DNA of 64,000 bases from an uncultured Bacillales bacterium. Lineage in GTDB: Bacteria > Bacillota_I > Bacilli_A > RFN20 > CAG-449. The stretch is from positions 65,813 to 129,812 of the forward strand of contig CAMEOO010000002.1 of NCBI GenBank assembly GCA_945929875.1, read 5' to 3'. Of the stretch, positions 59,158 through 64,000 are shown piece by piece (the first letter of the stretch is position 1; each line of letters starts with the position of its first letter). Made by a program: the position numbers and the translations under genes. The notes below the pieces were generated by a model. That model saw only the letters and a program-made list of their open reading frames with translations, searched no databases and was not told the origin of the DNA.

Positions 59158-62100
59158 ATGAATAAGTCAAAAAAGAAATTGATTATTTATCCAATGATTT
59201 TAGTTGGATTTACCGCTGGGCTAGTCGGATGTAAAAAAGGCGGAGCTTCTAGTTCGATAAGTTCTTCTGAAACTACTGACTCATCTAGTAGTTCTATCTC
59301 TAGTTCAATTGACAGTTCGACAAGTTCGTCTAATATTTCTAGCGATTCAAGTTCTACTAGTGAAGAATCTAGTTCTTCTGTCCAACTTGTTGAAGTAGTT
59401 TCTCTTCATGAAGAAATAACTATTAAAAATGATGTAATATTTAAATATGATTACACAAGTTTATTTTCAATTACTGTCGATGGAGAAAGTATTACTGTAA
59501 GTGAAGATATGATCGATACTTCTAACATTGTCAATAAAGAGGGTAGATATGAAATTACTTGTACTTATCTAGGTAAAACAGCCTCTTGCTTTGTCGTGGT
59601 TGAAAAAGTGGAAACAGTCGTTGTTAATGCAAAGGTCACCACCATTGAGATAAAGCAAAAAGAAGTTGATAGTTATGATTTTACTTCCTTATTCTCTGTG
59701 ACTGAAAAAAACCGTCCAGTTTCAATAACTCAAGATATGATTTCTTCCACTGTTAAAAGTGAAGAAGGGACATATCAAGTTACTTGCACATATAAAAACG
59801 TTTCTAAATCGATCGAAGTTATTGTCACTAGCAGCTATAATGTTGAAATATTTGAATCTTATAAAAATTATGAATTGACATTAAATGAACTAGAAACTTT
59901 TGACTATACCAAGTTATTTTCTATTTATGTCGATGGAAAGTTCACTCCTTTTAATAAAGATCTAATTGATACTAGTGAAGTAGTTGATCCTCAAGTTAAC
60001 GACGAATTTAATATTAGCATTACTTTTCAAATTGAAGATGTCATTAAAACTAAGACGACTAAGATTACCATAGTCGATGAAAAAGAAGTGGTGGTAAATG
60101 CAAAGAATTTAGTCATTTATCCAAATAGTAAAACTATTGATTTAACCACGCTTTTTTCTGTATATGAAGGTGGAGAAAAAGTAAATGTTACATCTAGCAT
60201 GATCACTGGATTTATCAATTATGATAAGATTGGCAATAATGAAATTACTCTTTCTTATAAAGGAACTAGTAAAACTTGTAACGTAGAAGTAAGAAAGGGA
60301 GTACTAATTCAATATGCTACTTCTGATAAGATCGTTATCAAAAAAGGTACTAATCAATCCACTTACAATTTCGCTAACGATTTTATCGTCAGCGTCAATG
60401 GAACAAAGTTTAATCTAAATAATACTTACGTCGATAGTTCTACGGTTGATTTTTCTACTGAAGGAGAATATGAAGCAATCATAACTATTCCTTATGGAGA
60501 AAATAGTGAAGACAAAACATTGACCTCTTACCAACTTAAGATTACCTATGTCGTTACAAACATCAATGCGGTTGTAAATGTTAAAGAAGCGGTGGTAACT
60601 TTAGATTATGGTACTACTAGTTATAATTTATTAAAGAACGTTACTTCTAAAGTAAATGGAAACAACATGATTGTTACTGACAATCCTGAATGGGCAACTG
60701 ATCCAACTTGTACTTATGTAGAAGTAGTTTCAGATCCAATCGATTTTACTAAATCTGGAACTTATGAAGTAGTGATTAATGCTTATCCTTATGGAACTAA
60801 TGAAGATCCTCTTGTCGTATCTTATCAACTAGTTATTAAATCCGCTGTAGTGATTTCTGAGGCGGATAAAACTACTTTCTTTACTGGCGACAGCGCTTAT
60901 TTAAAAGATATGTTTATCGTTACAAAAAACGGAGTTGAAGTTGATATAACTAATGACATGGTAGAAGGGAAAGTGGATTTTTCTACTCCAGGAGTTTACA
61001 CCTTAACTTTAGAATATGAAGGAGAAAAAGCTCTTGCTAAAGTAGTTGTTTTAGATTCTAGTATGAAAGGAGAATATTCAACTTGCTTAACAAATATTGT
61101 AGCTAGTTCTTCTTCAAGCTCTTCTTCTGAAGAAAATAATGGATATGACGAATCAAATGAGGAAGAAGAAGAGGTAATAGTAAAAACTTTAGACAAGATG
61201 GTTATTGATGATAATGGAATTAAGTCTATCGATGGAAAAACAGTAATTAATTTTAATGCGGTAGATGAAAAGACAATCAACTTTACTATTGGCTCATTTA
61301 ATTACCTTCTTCACTATGAAGATGGAGTGGTTATTTGTGAACCTCTTAATAAAAGCCATATGAAGTATAGCGATAGTAATCGTCCATATGTCTATTTTAA
61401 AGATGATAGATACGAAATAGTGAACTCTTTAACAATCAATAGTTCAACTGATCACGTATTTGCTTCTTCTAGTTCATGTTCAACTATTGAACTTATAAAA
61501 GTTAAGGACCTATTAGAAGATAAAGAAATGTATTTTGGAGTTAAGTTCTCTTTAGATGAAGTAAATGTTAGCGATTATTTCTATTCATATGATTATTCTT
61601 ATTTAAATGATGAAAATAATGTTTTATCTTCTTTAGTAGTTGGAAATACTTATAAGATTAATTTTTTAGGCGAAGATGTATCATTTAAACTAGAAAGTTC
61701 TTCTTTGGGTAAAATTATAAGAACAGATTCACTAGATAGAAAATATAAAAATATGACTTTTACTGGATTAGTAGATTCAAATAGCGCAGTCTTATCTTTT
61801 AATGAATATCAAAATGTAACTTTAACTGTTAATGATGAGAAAGTTTTTTCAAAGATTTTTAACGAATACGCTTCAACAAAAATCGGTGGAATCGATTATG
61901 ATACAAACACGATAAAAGTCTATAGTGAGACTGATGGTTATTCTTATATCTTTAAATTGAACTTAGAAGATAAGACATTTGTAGTGGAAGAAAAAACTTC
62001 TATTCAAGGTATATTTTCTCCAACTACTTCAACTAGTTTGAGTTCATCTTTCTTCTTCTTTGATGGATATGGTAAAGGGCTAGCCAGTGGACTTGATAGT

Positions 62101-64000: not shown

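Follow-up and report, generated by a model that had tools for sequence, protein, structure and literature searches.

A giant surface lipoprotein gene of an uncultured Bacillales bacterium belongs to an unnamed protein family and to a conserved six-gene cassette

We analyzed a stretch of 64,000 nucleotides (nt) of DNA (the window) from an uncultured Bacillales bacterium (contig CAMEOO010000002.1 of assembly GCA_945929875.1, positions 65,813 to 129,812), at the end of which a giant open reading frame (ORF) on the + strand runs off the sequence. We call this ORF gene E and the genes around it A to F. Because its frame is open, because it is preceded by a ribosome-binding site and begins with an ATG and a lipobox, and because it has colinear homologues, gene E is a real gene. 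Homology searches make it a member of an unnamed family of ~160 clusters, and the gene order in its relatives makes it part of a conserved six-gene surface-protein cassette, not an orphan. That its product is a surface-anchored modular protein of this family we regard as close to certain. The best overall explanation, to which we assign a probability of roughly 0.55, is that this surface giant serves as the multivalent binding arm in an assembly whose other parts are encoded alongside it.

Results

Full translation of frame 1, begun at ATG 59158 and carried on to the end of the window at 64000, gave 1,614 codons without a stop. From the regional base composition (30% G+C), the probability of such a frame staying open by chance is ~1e-62, and the other two + strand frames contain 143 and 269 stops over the same region. 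A sequence-only reading made earlier of this DNA had proposed an unlisted giant ORF of more than 1614 amino acids (aa) here and had named an in-frame stop as one observation that would overturn it; translation of 59158-64000 showed none, and the proposal stands. The + strand ORF list of the window has no entry after 59077 because the listing rule omits ORFs that run off the source sequence. The "unlisted" status of gene E thus stems from this rule, not from the sequence.

The ribosome-binding site AAAGGAG and the lipobox LVGC that had been named for gene E are both present. The N-terminus of the protein, MNKSKKKLIIYPMILVGFTAGLVGC, consists of a positively charged n-region (MNKSKKK), a hydrophobic h-region (LIIYPMILVGFTAG) and the lipobox LVGC, the Cys of which is residue 25, and thereby has all the sequence features of a substrate of signal peptidase II (SPase II), for which we took the bacterial lipobox as [LVI][ASTVI][GAS]C. 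This Cys is invariant in alignment A1, which holds the window protein and the relatives P0001-3, and a lipobox-like motif occurs in 79 of the 92 family members. Directly before the ribosome-binding site, the spacer between genes D and E contains an A/T-flanked stem-loop with a folding energy of -16.9 kcal/mol (z = -5.8), which none of 200 shuffles equaled in stability. A simple terminator scan did not flag this stem-loop; its role might be that of a partial terminator or of an mRNA-stabilizing element setting the D:E expression ratio.

A word-indexed protein search with the C-terminal region returned three homologues of ~30% identity, colinear with gene E from the signal peptide on. The view that gene E is a near-orphan was rejected after two wider searches. 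A one-genome-per-species scan gave 57 E-type loci, the best of them 45% identical to gene E, and an exhaustive profile search of 1.84 billion representatives gave 160 proteins at E <= 1e-3, of which 113 also pass E <= 1e-30. Almost all of the 160 are colinear and 1,250-1,600 aa long, or are fragments of such proteins. Gene E is colinear with P0001-3 over the immunoglobulin (Ig)-like stalk and the distal domains D1-D7 described below, and genes A-D lie upstream of it in the family order. The record titles of the carriers name Bacilli, 'Mollicutes', Coprobacillus sp. CAG:698, Clostridia, Christensenella/Christensenellaceae and Eubacteriales; such labels of metagenome-assembled genomes are approximate, and a few of them are plainly wrong. 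The source of gene E is a low-GC member of the gut Bacillota, and the records closest to it are labeled Bacilli. Where a title names its source, it is nearly always a gut assembly, from human, mouse, rabbit, roe deer, goat or chicken.

The mature protein begins with a Ser-rich tether, located, in agreement with the sequence-only reading, at aa 26-75; it is poorly conserved and is missing from many homologues. The tether is followed by the Ig-like stalk. Pfam recognizes Big_3 (PF07523) in gene E at E = 1.6e-14, the score of 54.4 bits exceeding the gathering score of 21.2 and the best stretch being aa 568-631, and Big_3 was also matched in 29 of 32 relatives. A plain BLASTP comparison of the protein with itself detected no internal repeats at E < 0.01, and profile methods were therefore required. 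With hhalign and a family alignment of 52 sequences, the inter-repeat profile-profile matches among R1-R7 have probabilities of mostly 95-99%, so that the approximately seven repeats suggested earlier at 59383-61055 could be placed as exactly seven. Compared with the repeat in the same position of 51 homologues, each repeat shows 30-47% identity, the highest values (43-47%) being those of R4 and R5. Since conservation runs position by position, the make-up of the array is fixed, unlike that of a variable spacer. An eighth Big_3-like Ig domain is situated further on, between D4 and D5. In this domain, hhalign pairs aa 1091-1120 with aa 422-451 at a probability of 78-79%, the pattern D-F-N-x-P-G-F-Y...Y-Y-G-I-Q-V is typical of R1-R7, and AlphaFold predicts strands and two short helices.

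The distal region, aa 633-1614, has no match to any Pfam or NCBIfam family. We modeled these 982 residues with AlphaFold from a 32-sequence alignment, which gave a mean predicted local distance difference test (pLDDT) score of 81.8 and a nearly all-beta structure; with four sequences only, the pLDDT was 54 and the model unusable. Low-confidence stretches of at least three residues are limited to aa 651-672, three short internal stretches, each 3-9 residues long, and the final ~35 residues, where the window end cuts the protein. The only long disordered internal stretch is an acidic/poly-Ser loop. It had been described before as an acidic/Ser linker; such a segment is indeed present, but in the model it is a loop inserted after the first strand of D1 and not a spacer between regions. 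The domain map (see the table) was derived from the strand pattern of the model, the family alignment and the self-comparisons. D2, D3 and D6 are family-specific domains, and among the 597 ORFs of the loci a hidden Markov model (HMM) of D2 matches E-family proteins only. The conserved D3 and D4 motifs, [RK]KY[AK]NMTFTG and F-F-D-G-Y-G-K-G, were used as genome search patterns. An 18-nt tandem repeat within D2 (61573-61611, +; 2.2 copies, 80% matches), which encodes the Tyr/Ser-rich SDYFYSYDYSY, is probably trivial.

For the distal region, a recurring C-terminal module with a Y-K-G-x-Y/F...DG[FY]G signature had been proposed, to be given up if it was not statistically repetitive. We built a module HMM from 128 family modules of the D4, D5 and D7 types (alignment A4). 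It matches gene E five times, at aa 960-1044 (31.1 bits), 1133-1230 (35.8), 1311-1364 (17.8), 1388-1493 (13.2 bits) and 1587-1610 (10.1 bits), and the last two copies lay outside the training set. The best score in 200 shuffles of the distal region was 6.7 bits, and none of the shuffles gave a comparable result. The first copy is D4, copies 2 and 3 are D5 and D7, and copies 4 and 5 are D5' and D7', the latter cut by the window end. The five motif examples quoted in the sequence-only reading open these five modules, with the consensus h-x-G-x-[YF] ... L-x-[LF]-D-[GAK]-[FY]-G. The repeat is thus real, but what had been taken for a 20-residue signature is the start of a beta domain of ~90 residues. 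By eye, D1 and D3 share a G-x-[YF] ... h-x-h-D/N pattern and are possible further copies; the module HMM did not detect them.

The comparisons of longer segments indicate that the module sits in a three-domain super-repeat of ~265 residues, D5-D6-D7. Unit 1133-1387 and unit 1388-1614 align colinearly with a Smith-Waterman score of 124, compared with 43 +/- 8 (maximum 72) for shuffles, so that this test, like the HMM, exceeds all shuffled sequences. In a window-anchored profile comparison, aa 1242-1332 match aa 1518-1609 at 95-96% probability. In P0021, the full-length relative nearest to gene E, a unit of ~265-270 residues occurs four times, starting at ~1105, 1375, 1645 and 1915, with matches between units at 95-98% probability over the later two-thirds and at 68-95% near the unit start. 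Unit 1 of gene E matches units 2-4 of P0021 at 95-98%, again over the later two-thirds. The window holds unit 1, modeled as 8-stranded meanders at a pLDDT of ~90, and most of unit 2 (1.9 copies), whereas full-length relatives hold four units and the long relatives have 7-8 module copies above 8 bits. A scan for tandem repeats at the DNA level gave no long repeat. With this result and the weak alignment of the units at the protein level, a recent duplication at the DNA level was rejected.

The module pattern recalls that of lipocalin-like domains in bacterial lipoproteins; to test this likeness, the 128 modules were scanned individually against Pfam at E <= 1. DUF5640 (PF18692) was matched by 16 of them (best E = 0.005) and Lipocalin_4 (PF13648) by nine (best E = 0.009), all below threshold; every other Pfam family was matched by at most two. 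DUF5640 was also matched in two of the 32 full-length proteins, and gene E itself reaches the gathering score of neither family. In the model, each module forms 7-8 consecutive short strands per ~90 residues with a pLDDT of ~90, a strand pattern which fits a lipocalin-like fold without proving it. Searching a 5.8-billion-protein index with the module profile returned nothing at E <= 1, a 95-position profile being too weak at that size. The module is either a very divergent lipocalin-like domain, possibly of the DUF5640/Lipocalin_4 type, or a new domain family. It had previously been called unassignable, which holds true insofar as no family scores above threshold but overlooks this weak and recurrent similarity.

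Long forms are a minority in the family and include P0021 (2,284 aa), P0052 (2,271), P0059 (2,259) and the ORFs in loci L006 (2,274) and L007 (2,279). Short forms contain one D5-D6-D7 unit and long forms four. Residues 1-1606 of P0021 are 52% identical to gene E aa 1-1614. An exact 63-mer from the window end matched none of the metagenome contigs; P0021, L006 and L007 accordingly served as guides to the 3' end. By this comparison, the full gene E most likely encodes ~2,290 aa, and the missing ~680 would comprise the rest of unit 2, units 3-4 and a terminal domain. No LP.[TSA]G motif is present in eight full-length relatives, whose C-termini are conserved beta-domain sequence. On this ground an LPxTG adhesin of the MSCRAMM type or a serine-rich repeat protein (SRRP) was rejected, and the N-terminal lipid is the sole predicted anchor.

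Genes A to E of the window all carry lipoboxes. The order A-(B)-C-D-E and then F is found in L001-L005, in L063 and in essentially all sufficiently long loci among the 57, and D lies directly upstream of the giant gene E in every locus whose contig extends that far. Gene A, which has a counterpart in the same position in related loci, matches Peptidase_S8 (1e-38), PA (1.3e-15) and LRR_5 (4e-134) in Pfam with its catalytic motifs intact (DSG219, HGT290, GTSMA610); its best NCBIfam match is SGO_0316_fam (E = 3.8e-80), at 270 bits against a family cutoff of 1,400. A gene of 183-198 aa occupies the position of gene B in L001, L003, L006, L063 and others. The listed start of gene C is TTG 54910; ATG 54931, which yields a proper lipoprotein signal peptide, MKNKKKFLMLIALGLLITSC, is its likely start. 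Genes C and D are paralogous (hhalign probability 100%, E = 3.5e-51). Their conserved cores of ~600 residues have no Pfam or PDB match, and a conserved W-x-x-[QN]-H-L-W-N-H-L-G motif is kept in D-type but absent from C-type proteins. Instead of the Ser-rich tether, C/D of other species have a Big_2 or an I-set Ig domain. Homology of E with C/D was rejected, as only the signal peptides match.

The position of gene F lies beyond the window end, and F is known from the loci of relatives, where it is a giant of 1,500-2,700 aa with Flg_new repeats that is always found downstream of E. The module HMM has 38 matches in F proteins (E < 1e-3) and none in the other ORF classes of the loci; E and F therefore share the signature module. 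Five out-of-family matches of the exhaustive search were scanned against Pfam, and all five carry Flg_new or Flg_new_2 repeats. The DG[FY]G module, which the sequence-only reading had suggested looking for in other genomes, is thus present both in E homologues and in Flg_new giants. Pfam detects no Flg_new (PF09479) repeats in gene E, and the ~90-residue module is all that it shares with F.

Table. Features of the cassette and of gene E (positions in the window unless a locus is named)
Feature	Position	Strand	Description	Basis
Gene A	46750..54204	+	2,484-aa lipoprotein (LTGC); S8 subtilase with PA, fn3_5, Big_2 and BspA-type LRR_5	Pfam
Gene B	54217..54771	+	184-aa lipoprotein (LSSC), no known domain	ORF list, sequence
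Gene C	54931..56880	+	~649-aa lipoprotein (ITSC), Ser-rich tether	sequence
Gene D	56909..59077	+	722-aa lipoprotein (LCAC), Ser-rich tether	ORF list, sequence
D-E stem-loop	59100..59134	+	intergenic stem-loop, then GCTCAATTT	RNA fold
Shine-Dalgarno-like site	59144..59150	+	AAAGGAG, 7 nt upstream of ATG 59158	read from sequence
Gene E	59158..64000	+	~first 70% of a predicted ~2,290-aa protein	open frame off window end
Signal peptide of E	59158..59232	+	lipoprotein signal peptide, lipobox L-V-G-C, Cys25	translation
Tether	59233..59382	+	Ser-rich, low complexity, aa 26-75	translation
R1-R7	59383..61053	+	seven Big_3 Ig-like domains, aa 76-632 (76-149, 150-224, 225-306, 307-379, 380-467, 468-561, 562-632)	Pfam, hhalign self-matches, positional conservation
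D1	61054..61362	+	module, aa 633-735	AlphaFold strands at model residues 6-9, 49-97
Acidic/Ser loop	61105..61173	+	disordered, aa 650-672	pLDDT < 50 at model residues 19-40
D2	61363..61734	+	all-beta domain, aa 736-859, conserved R-P-x-x-Y-F motif	alignment, model
D3	61735..62028	+	domain, aa 860-957, conserved [RK]KY[AK]NMTFTG	alignment, model
D4	62029..62298	+	module copy 1, aa 958-1047, conserved F-F-D-G-Y-G-K-G	HMM; 7 model strands
Eighth Ig domain	62299..62550	+	Big_3-like, aa 1048-1131	hhalign, sequence pattern, model
Super-repeat unit 1	62551..63318	+	D5 (1132-1230), D6 (1231-1310), D7 (1311-1387)	module HMM, model
Super-repeat unit 2	63319..64000	+	D5' (1388-1493), D6' (1494-1586), D7' (1587-1614)	module HMM, hhalign
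Flg_new giants (gene F position)	L001 14412-21020, L003 14317-19524, L004 9215-14035 and others		downstream of E	

A terminator-like hairpin (46635-46654) stands ahead of the cassette, and the region upstream of 46750 is ordinary chromosome, which encodes ClpB, an AddAB-type nuclease/helicase, AdhE, a P-type ATPase, an alpha-amylase with ABC permeases and a HydABC-type [FeFe] hydrogenase operon. In this last part, a gene at 39555-41225 (+) encodes a HydA-like protein of 556 aa that has an additional Fe-S domain; a gene for a SpoIIE/PP2C-type phosphatase (41218-42387) overlaps this gene, and NuoE-like, NuoF-like and HydA genes come next (42504-46623, +). To judge by these gene products, the layout of 39555-46623 looks like a sensory hydrogenase/phosphatase pair ahead of an electron-bifurcating HydABC operon. 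The window also contains an AbiEii nucleotidyltransferase toxin gene (38213-39130, +; Pfam E = 1.2e-32), which overlaps the preceding ORF of 208 aa (block 37612-39130); the product of the latter has no Pfam match and would presumably be an antitoxin of the AbiEi type. At 2578-3111 (-), a full-length ROOL RNA (Rfam RF03087) scores 185.8 bits against a gathering score of 99.1, and a tRNA-Thr(CGT) gene at 4012-4087 (-) lies ~900 nt from it on the same strand. ROOL RNAs are large and structured, and no function is known for them.

Discussion

Following the established lipoprotein pathway, the gene E protein would be exported by the Sec pathway via its type II (lipoprotein) signal peptide, and lipidation of Cys25 would hold it in the outer face of the membrane. 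The tether and the seven-Ig stalk would then hold the distal string of beta domains at a distance from the membrane of tens of nanometres. This string, with 12 small beta domains in the window and ~19 predicted in the full-length form, may act as a multivalent binding arm working with the products of A-D and F. Such an assembly might attach to or capture host-derived or particulate gut substrates, possibly with proteolytic processing. We propose the specific role of binding arm tentatively, its chances being somewhat under even.

Several observations weigh against the binding-arm explanation. Binding, adhesion and cooperation with the protease are read from architecture and gene order alone, and the 3' ~30% of gene E lies beyond the window. 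No experiment or annotation is on record for any member of the family, none has a name in the database sources, and literature searches on the family, the cassette or DUF5640 yielded nothing relevant. The lipocalin-like assignment of the module is below threshold, and the C-terminal region of the window protein, including its own D7, has no Pfam match. Profile searches of PDB sequences with alignments A3 and A4 gave nothing significant, and a Foldseek comparison of the whole 982-residue model with the PDB and with viral libraries returned only spurious beta-propeller and tail-fibre matches, with TM scores <= 0.18. Finally, the Ig domains are fixed in number and order and each is conserved by position, whereas the stalks of classical adhesins tend to be spacers of variable copy number; this pattern suits a defined structural subunit no less than a free adhesin.

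The main rival explanation holds that gene E encodes a structural subunit of a surface assembly of fixed stoichiometry that A-F would form, for instance a scaffold of the envelope, a surface layer or an appendage. In this assembly the Ig domains and modules would mainly make protein-protein contacts inside the complex and would not form a ligand-binding adhesin. The near-invariant six-gene order across distant lineages, the fixed domain number with its position-wise Ig conservation (highest in R4/R5), the paralogue pair C/D and the module common to E and F can all be read in this way. Pfam and NCBIfam scans, however, revealed no assembly, polymerization or S-layer domain (SLH, CWB), and the coexistence of forms with one and with four super-repeats in the family speaks against a strictly fixed geometry. 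We consider a structural subunit rather improbable, while still a serious competitor. A weaker rival is nutrient or ligand capture, whereby lipocalin-like modules would bind small hydrophobic molecules or peptides, such as those released by the co-encoded S8 proteinase, and pass them to transporters. Cell-envelope proteinases feed peptide uptake in lactic acid bacteria, and gene A is a cell-envelope-proteinase-like S8/PA/fn3_5 enzyme; the recurrent weak DUF5640 and Lipocalin_4 matches and the ~8-stranded meanders of ~90 residues in the model point in the same direction. Yet the lipocalin-like similarity remains below threshold, the cassette has no transporter gene, and the invariant residues are mostly Gly and aromatic, with a structural rather than a pocket-like look. 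We regard ligand capture as distinctly unlikely.

Two further explanations can be set aside more firmly. A long, beta-rich, modular protein with tail-fibre-type names among its weak viral Foldseek matches might be cargo of a mobile element, either a receptor-binding or tail-fibre-like protein of a prophage or a surface-exclusion protein of a plasmid or integrative and conjugative element. These Foldseek matches do not exceed the TM score of 0.18 given above, tblastn against 50,697 phage and 72,556 plasmid records gave no match to gene E, and housekeeping flanks, a lipoprotein signal peptide and a conserved chromosomal cassette do not fit such cargo. A mobile-element origin is effectively refuted by the tblastn nulls, the flanks and the cassette, and we give it very little weight. 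That gene E is a chance ORF or a decaying pseudogene draws on its 3' end being out of sight; it is contradicted by the negligible probability of the open frame, by the identity to the intact P0021 over the whole window part and by the confident fold obtained from the family alignment. For the part of gene E inside the window this explanation is refuted, and it is the least credible of all.

The carrier gut lineages are common in human and animal microbiomes and essentially uncultured. A block of ~25 kb with six genes in the same order across distant lineages represents a large investment, which makes a central part in their lifestyle likely. A bolder interpretation, which we regard as doubtful, is that cassette A-F encodes a previously undescribed multi-protein cell-surface apparatus, a hallmark of uncultured gut Bacillota (labeled Bacilli or 'Mollicutes', Clostridia or Christensenella), that attaches the cells to the mucus of their host or to partner cells, with the DG[FY]G domain as a new family and the signature building block. 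The family definition, the domain map and the signature module provide an annotation handle for genes that are currently unnamed everywhere; the family thus defined offers a target for metaproteomic and metatranscriptomic searches and a basis for structural and binding studies. If gene E is only another adhesin-like giant, the value lies mainly in better annotation of a recurrent 'hypothetical protein'.

Comparison with Known Systems

At the level of the single module, likeness to DUF5640 and to Lipocalin_4, which we take to belong to the calycin clan, lies in the G-x-[YF] first strand, followed by an L-x-L-D-G-x-G strand and turn, and in the ~8 antiparallel strands predicted. Gene E differs in carrying five copies of its module in a giant protein, as opposed to a single domain; for full-length relatives the number of copies is put at 8-9. 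At the level of the stalk, the protein resembles the Big_3 Ig-repeat surface proteins of Bacillota, its N-terminal ~560 residues being seven Big_3 domains, with an eighth further on. However, Big_3 covers only about a third of the gene E protein, the anchor is an N-terminal lipobox instead of a C-terminal LPxTG or cell-wall-binding module, and the Ig repeats are individually conserved between orthologues and do not form a variable array.

With regard to the cassette, the S8 + PA + fn3_5 core of gene A recalls the loci of cell-envelope proteinases in streptococci and lactic acid bacteria (PrtP/PrtM, ScpA, the SGO_0316/0317 family). The lipoprotein gene prtM lies beside the proteinase gene prtP, and the lipoprotein genes of the cassette likewise adjoin the proteinase gene A. 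Gene A nevertheless scores far below the family cutoff, is lipobox-anchored and contains ~900 residues of BspA-type leucine-rich repeats, and its partners B-F resemble PrtM/PrsA in the signal peptide only. We know of nothing like C, D or E beside cell-envelope proteinases.

The Mycoplasma mobile gliding operon, with Gli123, Gli349 and Gli521, is a known case of tandem giant surface-protein genes in Mollicutes. By analogy, both systems would combine giant surface-protein genes in a fixed order with low-GC, host-associated organisms of reduced genomes. The cassette, in contrast, has no sequence similarity to anything named, is also found in genomes labeled Clostridia and Christensenella and comes with no evidence of motility, so the parallel is an analogy only. 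SRRPs, finally, occur in gut microbes (PMC6973325) and are, like the gene E product, surface proteins of gut bacteria with a Ser-rich low-complexity segment. The Ser-rich stretch of gene E is, however, only ~50 residues long and unconserved in the family, its relatives lack LPxTG, and the cassette is devoid of SecA2/SecY2 and glycosyltransferase genes. Altogether, gene E encodes an adhesin-like giant surface lipoprotein, a protein of a known kind, with an undescribed set of domains and a place in a conserved, unstudied cassette.

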